Below are positions 2,327 to 63,819 of a stretch of 64,000 bases of DNA, one piece after another (the first letter of the stretch is position 1; each line of letters begins with the position of its first letter). Both the position numbers and the translations under genes were made by a program. The notes under the pieces are model-generated. The model did no database searches, was not told the DNA's origin, and saw only the letters and a program-made list of their open reading frames with translations. Origin of the DNA: Elusimicrobia bacterium CG_4_9_14_3_um_filter_62_55 (GTDB taxonomy: Bacteria > Elusimicrobiota > Elusimicrobia > UBA1565). Location of the stretch: assembly GCA_002790095.1 (NCBI GenBank), contig PFUL01000054.1, positions 9,510 through 73,509 on the forward strand, written 5' to 3'.

Positions 2327-3340
2327 TTGACTAAAAACACTCGATCCCGGATCGTCGCGTCAGCCGTTGCATTTGCGGGCATTCTACCATCCTTGGAACG
2401 GATTGTTTGTTATGATGGGCCCCGGATGAAAGGTCCCGAATTCAAGATCTCGGAACTTGCCGCCGCGGTTTCGTTCGCCCTCACGGTGTTCACCGTTTTT
2501 GCCGCGGCCGTCGCGGCGTTGGCCGGATTCCCGTTTCCCTTTCCGCCCGCGCCGTTATACGCGGCCGCCGCGTGCGGACTCCTCTGCGTCGCATACGGAA
2601 TTTTCGTCGAACCCAAGCGCCTGAGCGAACGCTCGATTCGCATCGCGAGCCCGAAAATCACGACTCCCCTGCGCGTCCTCCACCTGTCGGACCTTCATGT
2701 GACGCGATGGAGGGACTTCGACGCGCGCGTCGCCCGAAAAGTGAAAGACCTAACCCCGGATTTGATCCTTCTGACGGGCGATTATACGGCCTCCCGCTTC
2801 GATCCGGAAGCGCTCACACGCCTGCTTTCGGAACTCGCGAAGACCGCCCCGGTCTACGCCTGCCTCGGCAACAGCGAGGGATCCCGTCCGGTGCATAGCT
2901 GGGTGTCCGTCCCGGGGCTCTCTTGGCTGGTCGAAGGCGGAGCCGACGTGAAACTCCGAGGCTCTCGCCTTCGCCTCGAAGCCGCGCAGCCGGGCGACGG
3001 GGAACGCCTCCTCGCGCTCAAGCCGGAGCCGTCCGTCTTCACGATCGGCCTCTACCACTATCCCGACTTAGCCGCCGTCCTCGCCGCGGTCCCCCTCGAT
3101 CTCGTTCTCAGCGGCCACACCCACGGCGGACAGGTCCGCCTGCCGTGGATCGGGGCGCTGTTTTCAAACGCCAAGCCCGGACGCCGTTTCGCACGGGGGC
3201 TGTTCCGTTCGGGAGACAAGACGGCCTTCGTCAGCCAAGGCATCGGCTGCGAAAGCTACGGACTTCCCCCGATGCGATTTCTCTGTCCTCCCGAAATCGC
3301 CGTTTTCGAACTAGTCCCGGAAAAGCCGTCAGTTGCCTGA
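2327..3340 (+). CDS. membrane-anchored calcineurin-like metallophosphoesterase
   Basis: Motifs LHLSDLH, GDY, GNSE and GHTHGG typical of the metallophosphatase fold. Hydrophobic N-terminal segment. Probable true start at Met 2426 (MKGPEF...), preceded by TGtTATGAT. Confidence 0.75.
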   Translation: MTKNTRSRIVASAVAFAGILPSLERIVCYDGPRMKGPEFKISELAAAVSFALTVFTVFAAAVAALAGFPFPFPPAPLYAAAACGLLCVAYGIFVEPKRLSERSIRIASPKITTPLRVLHLSDLHVTRWRDFDARVARKVKDLTPDLILLTGDYTASRFDPEALTRLLSELAKTAPVYACLGNSEGSRPVHSWVSVPGLSWLVEGGADVKLRGSRLRLEAAQPGDGERLLALKPEPSVFTIGLYHYPDLAAVLAAVPLDLVLSGHTHGGQVRLPWIGALFSNAKPGRRFARGLFRSGDKTAFVSQGIGCESYGLPPMRFLCPPEIAVFELVPEKPSVA

Positions 3341-3393
3341 AAAGTGCCGAATTCGGCCGTAGCTTGACTCTGGCCTCGACACGAAATCGGGTC

Positions 3394-3421
3394 TTGATAA
3401 TTTCCGGAAGTACGTTATAAT
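3394..3421 (+). promoter_or_regulatory. sigma70-like promoter: TTGATA (3394-3399), 16-nt spacer, TATAAT (3416-3421)
   Basis: Near-consensus hexamers in the only AT-rich stretch of this region, about 30 nt upstream of the XRE gene ATG at 3454. A short TTATA/TATAA inverted repeat overlaps the -10. Confidence 0.45.
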
Positions 3422-3453
3422 ATTCGTATAAACATAATTACATTACTATAGAA

Positions 3454-4233
3454 ATGAAAGTCACCGCCCTTAAATCCTACCGCTCGGCCATCGGCCGGGA
3501 ACTCCGCGAACTCCGCGAAGAGCGCCGCTGGAGCCAGTCCGAATTGGCGAAGCGCCTCGGCCTGTCTCAAGGATGGCTCTCCCGCATCGAAAGGGGAGAC
3601 GCCTCCCTGAGCGCCGAACAGCTCCTTTACGCCACGCGCATCTTCAACGCCAGCGTAGACCGCTTCCTGCCCAAACGGCGCGGCCCTTCCGGAGACCAGA
3701 TCCAAAACGCGCTGGCGAGACTCGGCGCGGCGCATCTCCTGGAGCTAGAGGGAGCCTTTCCCACGGAACGGCTCAGCGACGCGCTCAACGTAATCCAAGA
3801 GGTCCTCACCACGCCCGACAATCCCCGCCACGTCTCCGCCCTAACGCCCGTGCTGGTCGAGCAGGCCGCAGAACTCCGGCTGCCGGCCCTTCGCAAGCGC
3901 CTCGCCGAGGCCGGCCTCGAACGCCGCCTCGGCTGGCTCGTCGACAACACGCGCTGGGTCCTCGTACGAGAACTTGAGGAGACCAAGTCGATCCCGCTGC
4001 GGACCCTCAACAAATACCGCCGCGCGCTGAGCCGACTATCGCACGCCGGTTTCGAGCCGTTGGCGCGGACCGAGCCATCCGAGGACATATTCGACTCAAC
4101 GATCGTCAGCGACGCAAGCATCGATGAGGCCCGGAAGGAGCGCTCCGAGATCTCAGCGCGGTGGGGCATCCTGTCTTTTTTGCAGCCGCAGGACTTCCAA
4201 TCCGCGCTGAGGCAGGTCTATGCCCCCGATTGA
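3454..4233 (+). CDS. XRE-family HTH DNA-binding protein with ~190-aa C-terminal domain; putative antitoxin/regulator of downstream nucleotidyltransferase
   Basis: N-terminus GRELRELREERRWSQSELAKRLGLSQGWLSRIERGD is a classic HTH_XRE (HTH_3) helix-turn-helix. 14-nt overlap with the next gene. The C-terminal domain is not recognised (RRALSRLSH could be an Rx6H HEPN-like motif, speculative). Confidence 0.7.
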   Translation: MKVTALKSYRSAIGRELRELREERRWSQSELAKRLGLSQGWLSRIERGDASLSAEQLLYATRIFNASVDRFLPKRRGPSGDQIQNALARLGAAHLLELEGAFPTERLSDALNVIQEVLTTPDNPRHVSALTPVLVEQAAELRLPALRKRLAEAGLERRLGWLVDNTRWVLVRELEETKSIPLRTLNKYRRALSRLSHAGFEPLARTEPSEDIFDSTIVSDASIDEARKERSEISARWGILSFLQPQDFQSALRQVYAPD

Positions 4234-4816
4234 GCGGTTGCTGAAGGAACTCGACGGCATCTGGCCGCTCAAGCGGCCTCAGAAAATCCGTCTCGACATA
4301 ATCGGCTCCGGCGCCTTGATGCTCCAAAGCGACTACACCCGCTCGACCAAGGACGGCGACGTCTTCGAGCTGAAACCGCTTGAAGAGCTCGTACGCAAGA
4401 CTCTCCTAGATCTCGCCGGAAAGAAGTCCCGACTCCAAGCCAAACTGCATATGTACCTGGACATCGTGCCCAACGGCCTGCCGTTGCTCCCGGCGCGGCC
4501 CCTGTTCCACCGGATCGCTCTTTCCAAAAACCTCGAGCACTTCGAACTGCGCGCTCTCGACCCGGTCGACGTCGCGGTCAGCAAACTCCCCCGCTTCAAC
4601 GCCAACGATCGCACCGACGTGCAGTCCATGATCGAGCGCGGCCTGATCTCACATCAACGTTTGATCGCGCGGTTCCGCGACGCGGTCGACCGTTTCGCCA
4701 TGGATGCGCGGGCCGAACTTCTACCGAAGTACATCGAGCGCCTGCACTCCATAGAGCACGCGTTCTTTAATCTCCCGCCGACCCCTTTTGACTTGCCCGA
4801 CTGGATGGATCGATGA
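4220..4816 (+). CDS. minimal nucleotidyltransferase, AbiEii/MenT-like (DUF1814/DUF6036-like) putative toxin
   Basis: IIGSGALMLQSDYTRSTKDGDVF matches the minimal-NTase signature hG[GS]...[DE]h[DE]h and the GGxAL...R.S.D.D pattern of AbiEii/MenT toxins. GAGG Shine-Dalgarno 5 nt upstream. Translationally coupled to the HTH gene. Confidence 0.6.
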   Translation: MPPIERLLKELDGIWPLKRPQKIRLDIIGSGALMLQSDYTRSTKDGDVFELKPLEELVRKTLLDLAGKKSRLQAKLHMYLDIVPNGLPLLPARPLFHRIALSKNLEHFELRALDPVDVAVSKLPRFNANDRTDVQSMIERGLISHQRLIARFRDAVDRFAMDARAELLPKYIERLHSIEHAFFNLPPTPFDLPDWMDR

Positions 4817-4923
4817 AGATAAAGCGCGGGAGAAGCCGCGTTCGGAACTGATGCAAAATCCCGATTTCGGCCGCCTCGGACCGCTTCCCGCCCCTGAAAA
4901 GTTTTTGTAGAATAAGAGTTGTC

Positions 4924-4995
4924 GCCGCGGTAGCTCAGTGGTAGAGCACTGGTCTGAAAAACCAGGTGTCGGTAGTTCGATCCTACCCCGCGGCA
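4924..4995 (+). tRNA. tRNA-Phe (anticodon GAA)
   Basis: Cloverleaf readable: acceptor GCCGCGG/CCGCGGC, D-arm GCTC/GAGC with AGTGGTA loop, anticodon stem CTGGT/ACCAG with loop CTGAAAA (GAA at 4956-4958), T-arm GGTAG-TTCGATC-CTACC, discriminator A. CCA is not encoded (followed by CCC). Confidence 0.9.
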
Positions 4996-5010
4996 CCCCT
5001 TTCCAAAAGA

Positions 5011-45663: not shown

Positions 45664-45687
45664 GCAACTGTCCCCGGGGACAGTTGC
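45664..45687. repeat. 24-bp perfect palindrome GCAACTGTCCCCGGGGACAGTTGC (copy 1)
   Basis: Read directly. Shares the 20-nt core AACTGTCCCCGGGGACAGTT with the copy at 46903-46926. Lies 130 nt downstream of the HNH gene stop. Confidence 0.75.
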
Positions 45688-46902: not shown

Positions 46903-46926
46903 CGAACTGTCCCCGGGGACAGTTCG
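46903..46926. repeat. 24-bp perfect palindrome CGAACTGTCCCCGGGGACAGTTCG (copy 2)
   Basis: Read directly. 35 nt upstream of the HNH gene start. Same 20-nt core as copy 1. Confidence 0.75.
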
Positions 46927-52207: not shown

Positions 52208-53119
52208 CTATTCGCCCAAGACGTCGGCCATGCGCCGCGCGGCGTACGCCGGCATCCACAACAGATGGAGAATCGCGGTGTAGTGACCGCCCGGAACCCA
52301 ACGCTGGACCGAGTCCGGAAAGGCCTCTTTCAGCTTGCGGCCGTTCTCCGGCGGGATCACCCGATCGGAACTCGCGTTGATGAGCATGACGGACTTTCCG
52401 GCGTTCTTCTCGCGATACTCCAGCGGGTCGAGTCCCTCCCAAGCCGTCTTCAGATCCGCGCGCGATATTCCCGCCATTTTCATGAACGCGGCCGTCATCG
52501 TGCTGCGGTGCACCAAATCAATCATGTCGGCGCCCCCCAGAAGGAAGACCGCGCCGGACGGACGGGGATCCACCGAGTAGAGCGACGACCCCACGAGCGC
52601 ACCGAGACTGATCCCGAACACGCCCACCCGGGAACCGTCGAGGAGTTCCGAGCCTTCCAAAACATCCAGGGCGCGCCCGGCATCGGCCCGGGACTGCCGG
52701 AAGTTTTTCCCGAGACGCGACGCGCTGCGCGCAAGGAATACGGCCCCGCTCGGGATCGTAGGATTCGGACGCCGATGGAATTGGTAGGGCATCTCCAGCC
52801 ACAACACCGCCAGTCCGCGCCGCAAAAAGGCGTGAACGAAGCGCATTTCGATCCAGGCGTTGGGCGCCGCCATAATGGGGAGGATGAGCACCGCGGGGGG
52901 ACGCGCCCGGGAGGCGACCCGGTCTCGCGGCACATAGAGATGCCCCCAAACCGTGTCGTTCACCGGAAAGGGACTCCGCTCAGGGGACGGGAACCGAATT
53001 TCGTAGAGGCGATACCGATAGGTTTCCGCTTCGAAACGGATCTCCGTCTCAAAGCCCCTCGCGGCCGACGCCGCGAGGGAAATTAAGAGAATCGCCGGGA
53101 AAAATCGAGGATTTGACAC
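52208..53119 (-). CDS. alpha/beta-hydrolase fold protein (dienelactone hydrolase/peptidase S9-like)
   Basis: Signal peptide. Nucleophile elbow GISLGA (GxSxG). Downstream Asp/His candidates. Confidence 0.7.
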   Translation of the reverse strand: MSNPRFFPAILLISLAASAARGFETEIRFEAETYRYRLYEIRFPSPERSPFPVNDTVWGHLYVPRDRVASRARPPAVLILPIMAAPNAWIEMRFVHAFLRRGLAVLWLEMPYQFHRRPNPTIPSGAVFLARSASRLGKNFRQSRADAGRALDVLEGSELLDGSRVGVFGISLGALVGSSLYSVDPRPSGAVFLLGGADMIDLVHRSTMTAAFMKMAGISRADLKTAWEGLDPLEYREKNAGKSVMLINASSDRVIPPENGRKLKEAFPDSVQRWVPGGHYTAILHLLWMPAYAARRMADVLGE

Positions 53120-53230
53120 TTTTTAAGAAATCTTCTAGAATCCGAAGTATCACGTAATGGGAGTGTAGCAGTTTTCCCGATTGCGTCGGAATTTCAGCCG
53201 TTATTCTTCCGGAGGGGGAAGTACAGCAAC

Positions 53231-53545
53231 ATGGCACATGTGATTAATGAGAAGTGTCTGGGTGAAGTCTACGCGGCCTGCGTCGACGTCTGCCCGGTGG
53301 ACTGCATTCATCCCGGCAAGTACAAAGATGCGAACTTCATGGTCATCGACCCCGAAGTCTGCATCGACTGCGGCGTCTGCCTCCCGGAGTGTCCGATCGG
53401 AGCGATCGTCGGCTCCACCGACGAGGATGAGACCTACGCGGGGATCAACGCCGAGCTCGCGCCGACCTTCAAGGACAACGAAAAGGTCACCCCGCGGCCG
53501 CCGAACGATCCGCCGAAAAAGCCCGGGAACACGCTCGTAAAGTAA
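53231..53545 (+). CDS. fdxA: 7Fe ferredoxin ([3Fe-4S][4Fe-4S], FdxA type)
   Basis: CxxAxxxCP and CxxCxxCxxxCP motifs (CLGEVYAACVDVCPVDC, CIDCGVCLPECP). GGAGGGGGAAG Shine-Dalgarno. AT-richer upstream region. Confidence 0.9.
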   Translation: MAHVINEKCLGEVYAACVDVCPVDCIHPGKYKDANFMVIDPEVCIDCGVCLPECPIGAIVGSTDEDETYAGINAELAPTFKDNEKVTPRPPNDPPKKPGNTLVK

Positions 53546-57733: not shown

Positions 57734-58734
57734 TCCTGCTTGCCGCGCCGCTGTTCGCGGAAACGAGCCACATATCCGCGGGCTTCGACGGCGCCGCAAA
57801 GACCCTTCCCCTCGAGTTCTTCAAGCCGAATCCTGCGCTGCCGACGATCGAGGGACGCGAAGTCGAGGTCCCGGAGGATTTGAAGAAAGCCAAGGCCGTC
57901 TGGGGCACCGGGGCTCAGTCGGAGAAACTCGACCGGCTTCAGCCGGCGCCCAAGACCGCGTTTCGATTCGCCGTGCTCGGAGACATCGAAAACGGACGAT
58001 TCCCTTGGCAGCGCATCTTCGCGCCCAAAGGCGCCGCCGCCAAGCAACTCGCCGCGATTCACGCGGCGTCGGCCGATTTCATTCTCCAACTCGGCGATTT
58101 CGTCAGTAAGGGCAACGCCGACAACTACCGCGCCTATGTGAGGTTCCTGAAGGCGCATGTCTCGATCCCGATGTTCCACGTGATCGGCAACCACGACCGT
58201 TCCCGCCCCAACGGAAACGCGGATAAGAGCCTATACAGCGCCGTGTTCGGTGACGGCGACTACATTCGCGACTACAACGGCTGGCGCATCGTCGCGCTCG
58301 ACTCGTCGAACTACGCGCTCACCGACTCCCAACTCGAATGGCTCGACGCCGCGCTCTCCACCGACAAGAAGACGATCGTCGCGACCCACATCGTGCCGAA
58401 CTACTTAAAAGGGAAGCTTCACTCGGTCGGTCCGGATAAAGGGGTTCTGATCCCCGAGGCCTACTTCGAGCCCGGCGCGGCCCGTTTCGGAGAAATCCTC
58501 GCGCGGCGAAAGGTCGCCCGCGTTTATCTCGGCCACATCCACGCCTTCGGAATCGGAGACGTCAACGGCGTGAAGTACGTGCTGACCGCCGGAGGCGGAT
58601 CGCCGCTGTACCCGCTCCCGCCGGGCTATCCGTCGCGGCGCAAGGCGCATTACCTCATCGTCGAGGCGACCGGAGCGGGGTTGTCCGAAACCGTCCACGA
58701 GCTCGACGGGACCTCCTTTCCGATCCCGTGGTAG
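57715..58734 (+). CDS. secreted calcineurin-like metallophosphoesterase
   Basis: Signal peptide. AVLGDIENG, GDFVSKGN, GNHD, ATHIVP and GHIHAF metallophosphatase motifs. 19-nt overlap with the previous gene. Confidence 0.75.
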   Translation: MRYAFLILLAAPLFAETSHISAGFDGAAKTLPLEFFKPNPALPTIEGREVEVPEDLKKAKAVWGTGAQSEKLDRLQPAPKTAFRFAVLGDIENGRFPWQRIFAPKGAAAKQLAAIHAASADFILQLGDFVSKGNADNYRAYVRFLKAHVSIPMFHVIGNHDRSRPNGNADKSLYSAVFGDGDYIRDYNGWRIVALDSSNYALTDSQLEWLDAALSTDKKTIVATHIVPNYLKGKLHSVGPDKGVLIPEAYFEPGAARFGEILARRKVARVYLGHIHAFGIGDVNGVKYVLTAGGGSPLYPLPPGYPSRRKAHYLIVEATGAGLSETVHELDGTSFPIPW

Positions 58735-59762
58735 CCTGGGGCGCTTTCGCGCTCGTCGCCCTGCTGGCGGGTTCGGGCTGCGCTCAGGAACCCCGGACCT
58801 GGGCGGAGTATACCGAATCACTTCCCCCGCTGCAGACGATCCCGCACGAATCGTCGCACACGCTCCGGGTCCTCTACCTCGAAGACCCCCGCCTGCCGAA
58901 ACTCGACGAGAAGCAGAGAGAGACGCTGTACCGGAAGATCGAAATCCTGCTCGCGCAGTGGTATTCCTTCAAAGTCGATCTCGTGGAGGTCGGAGCGGGA
59001 GACCTAAGGGAACGATTCGAGAAGGCGGCTCCTGTTTTCGAAACCCCTTTGGCGAAGGATTTCATAAGCCGCAACGCCATCGACCTCGGGGGGTTCGGCT
59101 CGAAAGACTCGATCCTGAGCACGATCCGAGAGGACCTCGCGCGCCGCGACGAAAAACTGATCCGCCGCTACGTCAAATTGAAGCCCGGAGCGACGAAGGA
59201 CGACGCGGCCGCCGCGGTGTTCGCTGTGTTTGAAGACCGCCTGACCCGCCTGCGCGAGACGCCCGTCGGGGAGGAAGGCAAGGACATCCTGCACTCGGCA
59301 CGCTACGCGGACACGCAATCCTTCTCACATTGGGAGGTTTTTCTCGGGCGATTGGCGGACGCGGATTTCGTGCTGAGCAACTCTGTGATCGCCGGGCCCG
59401 ACTCGGCGATGCCGCTTTACGTCGCCGTGCGCGGCGGCATCACCAACGGCTTCGTGACCAATTCGAAGGAAAACGACTACCGCGCGGTCGGCGTCGTCGG
59501 GGCGCTTCCGTTTCTCTCCGACGCGCCGTTCTTCCTGGAGGAACGCGGCAAGATCCCCCAGCGCGAGAAACTCGACACCCTCGCCACCTTCTGGATGCAC
59601 GAATTGGGCCATTTCTTCCTGCGCATGAAGGAACATTACGGCGAGGGAGGCTGCGTGCACGTCGCCCCGGAAGGCCTGCGCGTCTACGAATGGCACCGCG
59701 CGGTCCGCAAGGCGCAAAACACCTGCCGGTTTCTTCCGGAAGAACGCCTCACTCTGTACTAA
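58728..59762 (+). CDS. lipoprotein with HExxH zinc-metallopeptidase motif
   Basis: Lipobox LLAGSGC. C-terminal WMHELGHFFL (HExxH). 7-nt overlap with the previous gene. Confidence 0.6.
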   Translation: MVAWGAFALVALLAGSGCAQEPRTWAEYTESLPPLQTIPHESSHTLRVLYLEDPRLPKLDEKQRETLYRKIEILLAQWYSFKVDLVEVGAGDLRERFEKAAPVFETPLAKDFISRNAIDLGGFGSKDSILSTIREDLARRDEKLIRRYVKLKPGATKDDAAAAVFAVFEDRLTRLRETPVGEEGKDILHSARYADTQSFSHWEVFLGRLADADFVLSNSVIAGPDSAMPLYVAVRGGITNGFVTNSKENDYRAVGVVGALPFLSDAPFFLEERGKIPQREKLDTLATFWMHELGHFFLRMKEHYGEGGCVHVAPEGLRVYEWHRAVRKAQNTCRFLPEERLTLY

Positions 59763-60000
59763 TACCGGAAGCAGGAGCGAAGATGGTCGTCGACCATCCC
59801 GACCGCCTGCATGTGCGCATAGACGATCGTGCTGCCGACGAAATTGAAACCCTGGACTGCGCCCCTTCCAGGATCAGGAACTCGAAATGCCTTAGGTCGT
59901 CGTGAACGGGAACGCCCCACTCCCTGTCGTGGTACTCCCGGTAGAGATCACCGCCGGTCTCGGACCAGTCGCAGCGTCTTTTACCGTTATAAGCCGTCAT
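59759..60000 (-). pseudogene. tag: DNA-3-methyladenine glycosylase I (tag) remnant with internal deletion/frameshift
   Basis: N-terminal 50 aa (RCDWSETGGDLYREYHDREWGVPVHDDLRHFEFLILEGAQ) match Tag. The frame then breaks. The Tag C-terminus (GFNFVGSTIVYAHMQAVGMVDDHLRSCFRY, cf. GFKFVGTTICYSFMQACGLVNDHVVGCCCY) resumes in another frame and ends at the TAG at 59759-59761. About 100 central residues are missing. Confidence 0.65.
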
Positions 60001-60376
60001 CGAGAACCGCCGGTTCGTTGGGAACGAGGGTCGCGGCATAATGCCCTTCGAGCATCCGACGCGCGCGCCACTCCCCGAGATGCCGTCGGGGCTTAGGGAC
60101 GAGCATCAGATCGCATTCCAGCCCCTCGAAGGCGCGCTTCCAGGTCGATAGGCGGGCATCCTTTTTTCCGGACTCCAGCTCATGCCAATGCTGCTGTCTT
60201 ATCCCCGCCCGGTGCGCCGCTTCCGCCTGGCTCATCCCTATTTTCACCCGGGCCGCCCATAGAAGCTCGCCCGGCGCCGCCGACTTCCAAGTGGGCGGTG
60301 CGGAGCGCGCGAACACCACGAGTCGGTTGAGCACGCGCTTCACACGCAGCGGCAGATTGACCAATTTTCCCATCAC
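59987..60376 (-). CDS. XRE-family HTH transcriptional regulator
   Basis: HTH: MSQAEAAHRAGIRQQHWHELESGKK. 129 aa. Divergent operator-like palindrome upstream. Confidence 0.6.
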   Translation of the reverse strand: MMGKLVNLPLRVKRVLNRLVVFARSAPPTWKSAAPGELLWAARVKIGMSQAEAAHRAGIRQQHWHELESGKKDARLSTWKRAFEGLECDLMLVPKPRRHLGEWRARRMLEGHYAATLVPNEPAVLDDGL

Positions 60377-60465
60377 GAACTCCGAATGCTTCTTTCGCCG
60401 TCTTCCCGCCGGGACGACGGCTCGGCGGGGAGGGGCAACATAAAGGTTTTCTGTCCCCTTGTAAT

Positions 60466-60487
60466 GTTACACATTTTCGTGTGTAAC
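60466..60487. promoter_or_regulatory. inverted repeat GTTACACA-N6-TGTGTAAC (candidate operator)
   Basis: 8-bp perfect arms, 6-nt spacer, in the AT-rich intergenic between the XRE gene and the low-GC membrane-protein gene. Confidence 0.4.
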
Positions 60488-60577
60488 TCTCCAAAGGACC
60501 TGCATTGCGACCTAGCCAGGCACCCTCCTTAGGATGCAACTTCTAATTCTTGCGGCCGATGCAATGCATAAAGTCGT

Positions 60578-60982
60578 TCATTCAGTTCTTCCCACTTGCT
60601 CAATGATTTGATCATGCTTCCGCATCAGAAGAAATGCAACGAGGGCGCTAGAAATCAACGACAGGGGGGCCATTCGGAGGCATCGACCTGCGAAGGATAA
60701 TGTATCCAAATTGAAAATCCGCGGGAACACAATTGATTCCGGGAGTAGTGGGAAAAGGGCAGCCGTATTCAAAATTTGGCCAGAGACATCATCACCGGCT
60801 ACGATGAGCGCGGTAAGCACAGCCAATTTCATTCCCCCGATAATTCCGAAAATCTTCAGAAAAACTGATTTTGAGGAGCGATTCTGAAACACACGGGCAA
60901 CCAAGAAAAGCGCTCCCACTGGAGCGCTAGCGAAAATCGTCCCTACGGAAAGCGTCAACCCCGCCGTGGCACTGCTACCCAT
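60578..60982 (-). CDS. ORFan polytopic membrane protein in low-GC islet
   Basis: 134 aa, about 4 predicted TM helices. Region 60440-61030 is about 48% GC by eye versus about 67% background. No recognisable family. Confidence 0.5.
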   Translation of the reverse strand: MGSSATAGLTLSVGTIFASAPVGALFLVARVFQNRSSKSVFLKIFGIIGGMKLAVLTALIVAGDDVSGQILNTAALFPLLPESIVFPRIFNLDTLSFAGRCLRMAPLSLISSALVAFLLMRKHDQIIEQVGRTE

Positions 60983-61059
60983 GCACTTGCCTCTGCCCGA
61001 TGTTTACGTTCCCAAATTCCTGAAAAGTATAGGCGGCAATTGCGCGGCATTCCAGAAGG

Positions 61060-62193
61060 TTACGCGCCCGCCTTGAAGACATTCCGCTTCGGCGCTTCCC
61101 GGTGCCGCACGGCGCCCAGCAGAGGGCCCACCGCCCAATTCGCGAGCGGGTTCGAATGGCGCACCCAAATCGACGTCGGCTCCGGCAAAGCCCCCAATTT
61201 TGCTTTCGGTTCCAGCGCCGTCCGCCCGAACGAAACCCGGGTACACCCCAACGCGATCGCGTCTTTGACCACGGACTGCAGCAGGGCGAAGTACACCGGC
61301 AATTCGCCGCGCAGGTCGCGCGAAAACCCGATGTAGTATCCGATAGCGGTCTTGGAGTCTTCCTTGAGCGTCGTCACGAAGCCCAGTATCTCTTCCCCTC
61401 GCCGCACGACGGTACAGCGCATGTCCGCGCCGGCGACGGCCGCGACCCGCGGCAAATAGTCCGGCGTCGCGGTCACGGGGCGCAATCCGGCGGCGCGGTG
61501 AACCTCCAGGTAAAGATCGTACAAGCGCTCGGCGTTTCGGCCCCAGGCGCCGAGCGGCTCGACCGAACAGCCGGCTTTCTCCAGACGACCGACCACGCCG
61601 CGCGCGTTCTTGCGGTAATGGGAATGCAGCTCTCCGAGGTAGTCGTCGAAGGATTTCCAGGACGGCTCCAGGGTCAGAACCATGTTCGGCTCGGTTTCAA
61701 CCGGACGGTAGCGGAAGCGTTTAAGCGCGGCGGGACCGGCGTCGGACGCGGGGAGATCCTTGATGGCGACGAAGTCGACCTTTCCCGAAAGCGTGTCGGC
61801 CTTGCGGACCCGGTACAGCACCTCGGCAACGGCGGGCCAAACGGCCGCGGGGTCGACCCCATCGGAGAACGCAACGCCGTGCTGCCCCCACGAGAACAGA
61901 TTGCCGCAGACCAACGCGCGGGCCCGCAGCCGAGCGGGGGCGACGGGGCTTTGGACGATTCGGTCCATCCCAATGTCGACGAGTTGCATCGAGACAGCGG
62001 CGACGGGTCGCCGCCCGTCGTAGACCAGCGCGCAGCGAGCGGTCAGATTGTCGGGCGCGCTTTGTTCCAGCGCGGAAAGATACGGCCTGCTCAGGAAGAA
62101 GCTCTTGCCTGCGGTCAACGCGTCCCAGGAGGCCGGTTCGAGGCAGCCGATCGAGTCGGAGATGGCGAATGAATATCGAGTTTTCCGGGTCAT
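61060..62193 (-). CDS. FemAB/BioF2-like GNAT-fold acyltransferase (Acetyltransf_6-like)
   Basis: 377 aa with duplicated GNAT-like halves. C-terminal ...AIGYYIGFSRDLRGELPVYFALLQSVVKDAIALGCTRVSFG typical of the FemAB-like family. Confidence 0.6.
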   Translation of the reverse strand: MTRKTRYSFAISDSIGCLEPASWDALTAGKSFFLSRPYLSALEQSAPDNLTARCALVYDGRRPVAAVSMQLVDIGMDRIVQSPVAPARLRARALVCGNLFSWGQHGVAFSDGVDPAAVWPAVAEVLYRVRKADTLSGKVDFVAIKDLPASDAGPAALKRFRYRPVETEPNMVLTLEPSWKSFDDYLGELHSHYRKNARGVVGRLEKAGCSVEPLGAWGRNAERLYDLYLEVHRAAGLRPVTATPDYLPRVAAVAGADMRCTVVRRGEEILGFVTTLKEDSKTAIGYYIGFSRDLRGELPVYFALLQSVVKDAIALGCTRVSFGRTALEPKAKLGALPEPTSIWVRHSNPLANWAVGPLLGAVRHREAPKRNVFKAGA

Positions 62194-62212: not shown

Positions 62213-63169
62213 TTATGCCGCGAGCAACTCGCGCTCCCGCTCGGGGTCCATACCGTTGACGCGCAGCGTCTCGGGCGGGCGCGTCTTGTCCCACTCCCAG
62301 GTGTCCCGGATCGTCTCCTCCAGGGGGCGAAACGTCAGCCCGCGTTCCCGGGCGAGCCCCCCGGCGAAGCGGGTGTCGATGCCCGGGATCCACAACGGCA
62401 GTTCGGTGTAGGGCTCGACCTCGTGGCGCAGCAGGAACGCGTCGTCCTTCCAAACCAAATTGCCGTTTCCGCCGACGACGCCTTGCATCGTTTCCAGCAG
62501 TTTCCCCATCGCCAGCGGCTTGCCGACCGCGTTGTAGCAGCCCGCGTCCATCTCGCCCGCCATGCGCACGACCCATTCGGCGAGGTCGCGAACGTCGATG
62601 AACTGAGTCAGGCGCTGGGGCCCGCCCGGCGCGAGGATGTCGCCGCCGCGCGCCACGCGCGACGGCCAGTAGGTAAAGCGATCCGTCGTATCATAGGGAC
62701 CGACGATCAATCCCGGACGGACGATCGTGGAGCCGATCGGGTAAATCTCATCGACGACTTTCTCACACGCGACCTTCAGCGCGCCGTAAGCCCCGCCGGT
62801 CATCGGCTCCGGCGGTTCCTGCAGGGGCGAGAACACCTCGCCGTCCTCGTCTTCCCTTCCCCCCCAATTCTTGTACACCGACACCGTCGAGATGAAGAGA
62901 TAACTGCCGACCTTGTGCTTCAAGAATTCGGCGGAAGCGCGCACCTCCCCGGGCAGCCTGCCGTTGACGTCGATCGCCGCGTCGAAGACCCGATTTTTCA
63001 ACCGTCCGATCTGGGTCGTCCGGTCGCCGAGCACCCGCTCGCAGTCGGGGAATAAGTCGAGGCCGGTCTGCCCGCGGTGAAACAGCGTGACCTCATGCTT
63101 TCGCTTGAGCGCCGCCTCGACGATGTGCCGCCCGACGAACGCGGTCCCGCCGATCACGAGGAGGCGCAC
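62213..63169 (-). CDS. NAD(P)-binding epimerase/dehydratase-family (atypical SDR) protein
   Basis: Rossmann GGTAFVGRHIV at N-terminus. YxxxK-like context (YGALK). Confidence 0.8.
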   Translation of the reverse strand: MRLLVIGGTAFVGRHIVEAALKRKHEVTLFHRGQTGLDLFPDCERVLGDRTTQIGRLKNRVFDAAIDVNGRLPGEVRASAEFLKHKVGSYLFISTVSVYKNWGGREDEDGEVFSPLQEPPEPMTGGAYGALKVACEKVVDEIYPIGSTIVRPGLIVGPYDTTDRFTYWPSRVARGGDILAPGGPQRLTQFIDVRDLAEWVVRMAGEMDAGCYNAVGKPLAMGKLLETMQGVVGGNGNLVWKDDAFLLRHEVEPYTELPLWIPGIDTRFAGGLARERGLTFRPLEETIRDTWEWDKTRPPETLRVNGMDPERERELLAA

Positions 63170-63819
63170 GAGCGCACCCCCTTTTTAGGGCAAAACGCGG
63201 CCAGCGGACAAAAATCGCAGACCGGAGAACGGGCAAAGCAGGCCCGGCGGCCGTGCCACACCATCGCGTGTCCGAAGAAGATCCAATCGGCGGGGTCGAC
63301 GCAGGCCATGAGATCCCGCTCGACCTGCACCGGGTTCGTTTTTGCGGTCAAGCCGAGACGGTAGGCGACGCGCTTCATGTGCGTGTCGACGACGATGCCT
63401 TCGCTGAGACCGAACGCGGTTCCGAGGATCACGTTGGCGGTTTTACGCGCGACGCCGCGCAGGGTCAGCAGTTCTTTCATCGTTTTCGGCATCTTCGCGT
63501 CGAAGCGTTCCAGCAGCGCGCGGGCGAGTTCCCGGATCGACTTCGCCTTCAAACGGAAAAACCCGGTAGACCGGATCAGGGTCTCGAGTTCCGGCACGGG
63601 GATTTCGGCGAAATCGCGCGCGGTTTTGCAGCGCCGGAACAGCGCCTTCGTCACGACATTGACCCGCTTGTCGGTGCATTGCGCGGAGAGGATCGTCGCG
63701 ACCGCGAGTTGGAGCGGGGATTTGAAATCCAATTCGCAGTGCGCGTCGGGGTAAAGCGCCCGAAGCCCGGCGACGGTCGCCTGGGCGCGCTCTTTTCGAG
63801 CCCCGAGCGGCGAGCCCAT
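63154..63819 (-). CDS. nth: endonuclease III (HhH-GPD DNA glycosylase with [4Fe-4S] cluster loop)
   Basis: HhH-GPD (LRGVARKTANVILGTAFG...VDTHMKRV) and Cx6Cx2Cx5C (CFARSPVCDFCPLAAFC). 16-nt overlap with the downstream gene. Confidence 0.9.
   Translation of the reverse strand: MGSPLGARKERAQATVAGLRALYPDAHCELDFKSPLQLAVATILSAQCTDKRVNVVTKALFRRCKTARDFAEIPVPELETLIRSTGFFRLKAKSIRELARALLERFDAKMPKTMKELLTLRGVARKTANVILGTAFGLSEGIVVDTHMKRVAYRLGLTAKTNPVQVERDLMACVDPADWIFFGHAMVWHGRRACFARSPVCDFCPLAAFCPKKGVRSCASS

Follow-up and report, generated by a model that had tools for sequence, protein, structure and literature searches.

The window analyzed in this study is a 64-kb stretch (64,000 nucleotides, taken as a whole) of contig PFUL01000054.1 from Elusimicrobia bacterium CG_4_9_14_3_um_filter_62_55. 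It contains an islet of low guanine-plus-cytosine (GC) content at 60437..61059, which lies between a GNAT/FemAB-like gene and a gene for an XRE-type helix-turn-helix (HTH) regulator and includes an orphan open reading frame (ORF). The XRE gene overlaps a degraded gene for 3-methyladenine DNA glycosylase I (tag). The low-GC patch was real but ordinary, and its parts did not form one disruptive insert. On balance, the locus probably consisted of three independent parts, which were an XRE-tag unit, a dead tag and a lineage-specific membrane ORF. For these parts we infer the operator function of a palindrome, autoregulation of the XRE gene, and the expression and origin of the ORF.

Organization and composition of the locus

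The GNAT gene, the orphan ORF, the XRE gene and the tag remnant were all located on the minus strand, in that order. The GNAT/FemAB-like gene (62193 to 61060) adjoined the islet edge and was followed by the orphan ORF of 134 amino acids (60982 to 60578), a gap of 201 nt with the palindrome inside, the XRE gene (60376 or 60373 to 59987) and the tag remnant (60000 to 59759). The remnant met a convergent gene of 344 amino acids stop-to-stop. The orphan and XRE proteins corresponded to NCBI hypothetical proteins of two Crystal Geyser metagenome-assembled genomes of Elusimicrobia, CG_4_9_14_3_um_filter_62_55 and CG1_02_63_36. Groundwater Elusimicrobia have been described (bioRxiv 10.1101/765248). 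Independent assemblies of ENA, JGI and Logan, derived from several samples, carried the locus with 100% identity, the deletion junction in tag included, which excludes an assembly artefact. The islet sequence was identical in more than 24 contigs from many samples. The contigs differed from each other only by ambiguous Ns outside the islet and by one single-nucleotide polymorphism in the GNAT gene. Because all contigs of the population were identical across the islet, the hypervariable character considered in the first-pass annotation was not supported.

The GC profile was calculated in 600-nt windows over the 64 kb (standard deviation 3.2%), and the threshold was set at three standard deviations below the mean. 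Only one region, 60241-61180, fell under this threshold, with a minimum of 48.8%. The GC content of the islet was 48.6%, compared with a window mean of 63.6%. The same value of 48.6% was obtained for 60440-61030, where a dip to about 48% had been claimed. This was the only long dip in the window, and the value of about 67% claimed for the remaining sequence was replaced by the computed mean. Other sharp 200-nt dips (~45%) at 3241-3520 and 53061-53300 were short ordinary intergenic gaps. The islet was a composite of the XRE regulatory region (60437-60577), the orphan ORF and the 77-nt leader of the ORF. Judged from sequence comparison, the AT-rich section at 60437-60577 is the XRE gene's own regulatory region. 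The orphan ORF alone had 49.9% GC. Its GC content at third codon positions (GC3) was 0.51, compared with 0.73-0.87 in the neighboring genes, which indicated that the ORF was foreign or young. Both the GC and the GC3 of the islet deviated in the manner of an acquired genomic islet.

XRE regulator and its upstream palindrome

The XRE gene (59987..60376, minus strand) encodes a Cro/C1-type HTH regulator of 128 amino acids when read from the ATG at 60373, which is probably the true start. The gene was intact, and its composition was native-like (GC3 0.73). A small XRE-HTH gene had been predicted after the palindrome, and the profile searches agreed with this. The protein scored 24.0 bits against Pfam HTH_3 (PF01381), above the cut-off of 23, and 24.7 bits against HTH_31, under the cut-off of 27. 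The sequence resembled those of the 434 repressor and HipB. The HTH core, residues 31-90, was predicted confidently by AlphaFold2 (AF2) from a 7-sequence alignment, with block means of the predicted local distance difference test (pLDDT) of 72-92. In Foldseek, the core matched HipB, ClgR, DdrO, C-proteins and 434 Cro with a probability of 1.0, and the target-normalized template modelling scores for HipB, ClgR, DdrO and 434 Cro were 0.7-0.8. These proteins are dimers that bind palindromes. A toxin-antitoxin reading was rejected on scores, spacing and partner genes. The XRE protein scored 25.6 against the HipB/Y4mF-type antitoxin model TIGR03070, for which the cut-off is 71.65. The gene downstream was the tag remnant in the window, and SRAP, P-II or another gene in the paralogs.

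The inverted repeat GTTACACA-N6-TGTGTAAC at 60466-60487 was a perfect 8-6-8 palindrome, exactly as had been noted from the first reading. It formed the core of a longer palindrome with imperfect 18-nt arms (60456..60497), the putative XRE operator. The core was the sole match in the window even when 3 mismatches were allowed, with 0.01 matches expected. It followed the stop of the orphan ORF at a distance of 91 nt and preceded the XRE start by 93-114 nt. The XRE upstream region (60377..60577, minus strand, about 200 nt, 52.7% GC) held a Shine-Dalgarno (SD) sequence, GGAG, at 60386-60383. This region aligned with that of a 71%-identical paralog, the P0003 type, beginning at the start codon and continuing past the palindrome. 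The aligned palindromes were CCCTTGTAATGTTACACA in the window and CCCTTGTAAGTTTATCTA in the P0003 type, and the window palindrome was homologous to the perfect 20-6-20 palindrome of this paralog. The alignment reached the ATGCATTGC motif (~60560), about 10-20 nt from the orphan ORF stop.

Since the palindrome was located within the conserved XRE upstream region and every paralog type had a palindrome of its own, it was most likely the putative operator of XRE itself rather than a control site for the membrane ORF. Upstream of the orphan ORF, no second copy of the palindrome and no pair of half-sites was found. XRE control of the membrane ORF, which the first-pass annotation had suggested, did not fit a palindrome that lies downstream of the ORF and has no counterpart ahead of it. 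Knowledge of the family and the comparative pattern suggested that XRE might repress its own gene via the palindrome. However, the arms of the paralog palindromes, at up to 20 nt, exceeded what a simple HTH dimer needs. This weighed against a plain operator, and the palindromes may thus serve another purpose, in addition to or instead of operator function. In the XRE upstream region, a GC-rich hairpin (60402-60432) was no better than shuffles (z=-0.37), and Rfam at a permissive threshold gave no match in 59500-61500. An integron attC site was rejected, as the arms GTTACAC/GTGTAAC misfit the RYYYAAC ... GTTRRRY cores and the palindrome belonged to the XRE upstream region. No integrase for an integron cassette was found among the called genes within ±4 kb.

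XRE paralog family

Five XRE paralog types were identified, all from groundwater Elusimicrobia, and several of them shared the window's genome. A metagenome scan with the XRE alignment returned the same five types only. The subfamily had conserved N-terminal MGxLxxLPxRxxR and C-terminal PRRHLGEWRARR segments. In each type, the start was preceded at a distance of 2-145 nt by a long AT-rich palindrome with arms of 10-20 nt and a type-specific sequence. At each of four paralog loci, the AT-rich palindrome that directly precedes the XRE gene was the longest in about 10 kb. The residues of the recognition helix varied in step with the palindromes among the paralogs.

The genes downstream of the paralogs varied as well. 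They were the tag remnant in the window, SRAP with a methyltransferase, P-II, a 149-amino-acid transmembrane (TM) protein and a 107-amino-acid protein. DNA-lesion enzymes were located downstream of two of the five, namely the tag remnant in the window and SRAP/YedK at locus L018; the other three were unrelated to DNA repair or family-less. This gave a hint that some members of the XRE family regulate DNA-damage genes. A 94%-identical XRE "variant" (P0004) was rejected since it came from a chimeric contig of 841 nt (L026). In this contig, an N-terminus like that of an efflux membrane fusion protein was fused to the C-terminal 86 residues of the window XRE, and the contig was most likely a chimeric assembly.

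Unusual DNA was observed at the operator regions of two paralog loci. At L022 (3819-4088, also in L028 and L029), three copies of the operator palindrome were located in one 290-nt intergenic region, and the central copy was a perfect 20-6-20 palindrome. Directly upstream lay about 2 kb of DNA with 45-56% GC and two family-less ORFs of 222 and 230 amino acids with hydrophobic N-termini. At L021, a 120-nt direct repeat (4233-4352 and 4885-5005, 94% identical) contained CTTTATAGGCGATCGCCTATAAAG, a 24-bp palindrome, along with the first 14 codons of the XRE paralog. The repeat flanked a lower-GC insert of about 530 nt with an ORF of the insertion sequence (IS) type, HTH_28, and in the upstream repeat copy the ATG was changed to AGG. 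Pfam gave no match above cut-off for minor overlapping ORFs and ORFs of the paralog loci. The pattern in L021 and L022 allows, and does not establish, that palindromic XRE regions are recurrent sites of DNA gain. Elsewhere in the window, two perfect 24-bp palindromes with the common core AACTGTCCCCGGGGACAGTT were found 1.2 kb apart, at 45664-45687 and 46903-46926. This pair looked like operator sites of another regulator.

Deletion in the tag gene

The tag remnant was divided into two fragments in different frames. The 5' fragment (59857..60000, minus strand) covered positions 4-42 of Pfam Adenine_glyco (PF03352), equivalent to residues 2-45 of Salmonella TAG (2OFK), and was extended out of frame as far as a stop at 59749. 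The 3' fragment (59759..59854, minus strand) covered positions 147-177 of 177, equivalent to TAG residues ~152-180, and included the native stop. At the junction near 59855, about 106 codons were gone, which corresponded to the entire central core of the fold, and no complete Adenine_glyco domain was found in a single frame. The first-pass annotation had described the loss of about 100 central codons together with a frame change, as well as an overlap of the XRE gene with the 5' end of tag. Both descriptions held, and the overlap between the XRE stop (59987-59989) and the tag ATG (60000) was 14 nt. The retained ends include Cys/His positions (RCDW, YHD, DDH..C) that we take to be those of the zinc site. 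Both fragments had native-like GC3 (0.70-0.81), and the native stop still overlapped the stop of the convergent 344-amino-acid gene. On these grounds, tag is an old resident that was hit by one internal deletion.

Two other genes were noted around the remnant. An endonuclease III-type (HhH-GPD) gene was located at 63154-63819 on the same strand, 3 kb from the dead tag, and the two may form a loose DNA-repair neighborhood. The convergent protein of 344 amino acids (58728-59762, plus strand) had a lipoprotein-like N-terminus and an HELGH metalloprotease-type motif, with no Pfam or NCBIfam family.

Edges of the islet

The tag deletion was internal and separated from the islet edge by about 580 nt, a distance that spans the intact XRE gene. 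At the other edge, the GNAT protein had a complete C-terminus, and its alignment with homologues extended to their ends. The islet edges showed neither direct or inverted repeats nor a duplication, target-site repeats and terminal inverted repeats were likewise absent, and no integrase or transposase was found within ±4 kb of the islet. No tRNA was located near the islet. A tRNA-linked island was rejected because the only tRNA in the window was at 4924. Since the tag lesion was internal and distant, the XRE gene and the GNAT 3' end were intact, and the edges had neither repeats nor mobility genes, the earlier claim of an insert that disrupted the local region received no support. No connection between the islet and the tag lesion emerged from the evidence. 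Horizontal acquisition, which had been claimed together with the disruption, was supported in part: the foreign-looking composition agreed with it, the strictly orphan ORF agreed with it or with a young gene, and no sign of a disruptive insertion was observed.

A synteny check of GNAT homologues with 58-65% identity found none that shared the gene order of the locus. A scan of genome contigs with the GNAT protein retrieved just relatives with 22-36% identity in other phyla. At its 5' end (62130-62193, minus strand), the GNAT/FemAB-like ORF was shorter by about 20 residues (..ALAWHKERHRPTGF..) than its homologues of 53-65% identity, in which this N-terminal segment is conserved, and no further upstream extension was possible.

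Orphan membrane ORF

The orphan ORF (60578..60982, minus strand) encodes 134 amino acids and probably a membrane protein with 3-4 TM segments. Strong hydrophobic segments were located at residues 9-32, 39-64 and 101-120, and one more was weak, in agreement with the ~4-TM protein that had been predicted at these positions. An SD-like AGAGG was located at 60994-60990, 7 nt ahead of the ATG. The protein had been described as having no recognizable family, and every search confirmed this. Pfam, PADLOC and PHROG gave zero families at E<=0.1, NCBIfam gave none either, and nothing in PHROG, PADLOC or Pfam placed the ORF in a holin, phage lysis or known defence family. A word-indexed search of 5.8 billion clusters and an exhaustive HMMER scan of 1.84 billion representatives each retrieved only the protein itself. 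Searches with tblastn against phages and plasmids and a scan of viral contigs were empty. Strict orphan status fits a recent acquisition or a young gene.

To evaluate the coding potential, the same strand was shuffled at constant composition, and random ORFs of 110 or more codons from these shuffles served as the reference. Codon-position heterogeneity (chi2 periodicity) was unusual at P=0.006. T at codon position 2 amounted to 42% (P=0.002), the grand average of hydropathy (GRAVY) was 0.82 (P=0.0009), and three TM-length segments had P=0.001. On the basis of these four properties and the SD-like sequence, the ORF was probably coding.

Proposed mechanism

XRE and tag would be a native two-gene unit. 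XRE, presumably as a dimer or higher oligomer, would bind the palindrome, which precedes the XRE start codon by about 100 nt, and repress its own transcription. Autorepression by palindrome binding is classical Cro/C1-type autoregulation. The tag gene would have been killed when a single internal deletion removed about 320 nt, shifted the frame and took away the whole helix-hairpin-helix and active-site core, so that the two ends remained. Between the XRE regulatory region and the GNAT/FemAB-like gene, a lineage-specific gene of 134 codons would encode a small polytopic membrane protein. This gene may have been acquired from an unsampled low-GC donor, or it may have been born locally in the AT-rich spacer. 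Its transcription would depend on its own 77-nt leader or on read-through from GNAT, not on the palindrome.

Alternative explanations

Several observations weighed against a membrane-protein gene, and they are best considered with the alternative that the 134 codons are no gene. In that case, the region would be an AT-rich spacer with the GNAT terminator and the XRE promoter/operator, and the "TM helices" would be by-products of a T-rich strand. The length of the ORF was marginal (P=0.04), as an ORF of at least 134 codons occurred in 4% of shuffles of the 623-nt region. Gene callers skipped the ORF on long JGI and ENA contigs, the AF2 model of the protein was poor and uninformative (pLDDT 48.7), and homologues were absent. 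A terminator-like hairpin with an 8-bp stem (-14.9 kcal/mol) and a T-tract was located inside the ORF at 60899..60928 (minus strand), 132-160 nt beyond the GNAT stop. This hairpin could serve as terminator for GNAT, and its stability alone was not significant compared with shuffles (z=-1.7). Sigma-70-like promoters were looked for in the region and none was found; to our knowledge, promoters of Elusimicrobia are uncharacterized. However, a non-coding spacer does not account for the unusual periodicity, second-position T content, hydropathy and TM segments or for the SD-like sequence before the ATG, and a spacer of 687 nt would far exceed the other intergenic gaps seen in the window. We regarded the absence of a gene as unlikely.

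A single acquired module, in which XRE controls a toxin, immunity, holin or export function of the membrane ORF and the insertion damaged tag, would explain why the two genes are adjacent on the same strand. Low-GC, family-less or IS-derived ORFs are also found directly upstream in two other XRE paralog loci, and L021 has a second operator copy ahead of the upstream ORF. However, the upstream ORFs of the paralog loci were unrelated to the orphan ORF, and the composition of XRE was native and that of the ORF was not. The operator followed the ORF with no second site before it, the 201-nt gap was unlike coupled toxin-antitoxin or holin cassettes, and the tag deletion was away from the islet edge. 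With neither a PADLOC or PHROG match for the ORF nor an antitoxin-level score for XRE, this module appeared highly improbable. The palindromic operator regions of the XRE family could instead be recurrent landing sites for foreign DNA, with the orphan ORF as the cargo of one event. Lower-GC DNA abutted the operator region upstream in 3 of the 5 paralog types, and at L021 the direct repeat with the palindrome and the first XRE codons flanked the insert. This explanation was nevertheless doubtful, considering that just five loci were sampled, the edges of the window islet were without the expected duplication or repeats, mobility enzymes were absent nearby, and attC core motifs were absent by inspection. 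Equally improbable, in our estimate, was that the orphan is a new membrane-protein gene, de novo or very fast-evolving, unique to one groundwater Elusimicrobia population and situated at an innovation or insertion hot-spot upstream of XRE palindromes. The reading with three independent parts was preferred.

Significance and comparison with known systems

The value of the three-part reading is mainly one of annotation. It separates a tag pseudogene, an ordinary XRE gene with putative autoregulation and a probable orphan membrane gene that was missed by several gene callers. The parts are of known kinds and will not surprise a specialist. If it is expressed, the orphan would be a clean candidate for studies of how lineage-specific membrane proteins originate in an uncultivated phylum. 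Its merit is that its compositional boundary is sharp and that it has neither a paralog nor, among about 15 billion proteins, a homologue. The XRE paralogs and their co-diverging long palindromes make up a small natural series for operator specificity.

The window XRE resembles the Cro/C1 autorepressors (434 Cro/cI, HipB, ClgR, controller C-proteins of restriction-modification systems, DdrO) in its five-helix HTH core, in the perfect inverted repeat upstream of its own gene and in the small gene that is next in the operon. It differs from the Cro/C1 structures in the conserved MGxLxxLPxRxxR and PRRHLGEWRARR extensions, which were modelled without confidence. It also differs from these systems in that the predicted operator arms of the paralogs reach 16-20 nt and in that no toxin, restriction-modification or IrrE-type partner was identified near it. 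The remnant resembles Tag (3-methyladenine DNA glycosylase I, PF03352) in its N-terminal ~45 and C-terminal ~30 residues. However, it lacks residues ~46-151, which amount to about 60% of a fold of ~180 residues, and the parts are out of frame, so it is a pseudogene. The window islet offers neither mobility genes nor a tRNA, and neither direct repeats nor a presence/absence polymorphism, as a record of acquisition, and it may have arisen de novo. It shares with the low-GC ORFan islets of high-GC bacteria a short deviant segment in which a lineage-restricted small hydrophobic ORF is located between conserved genes.

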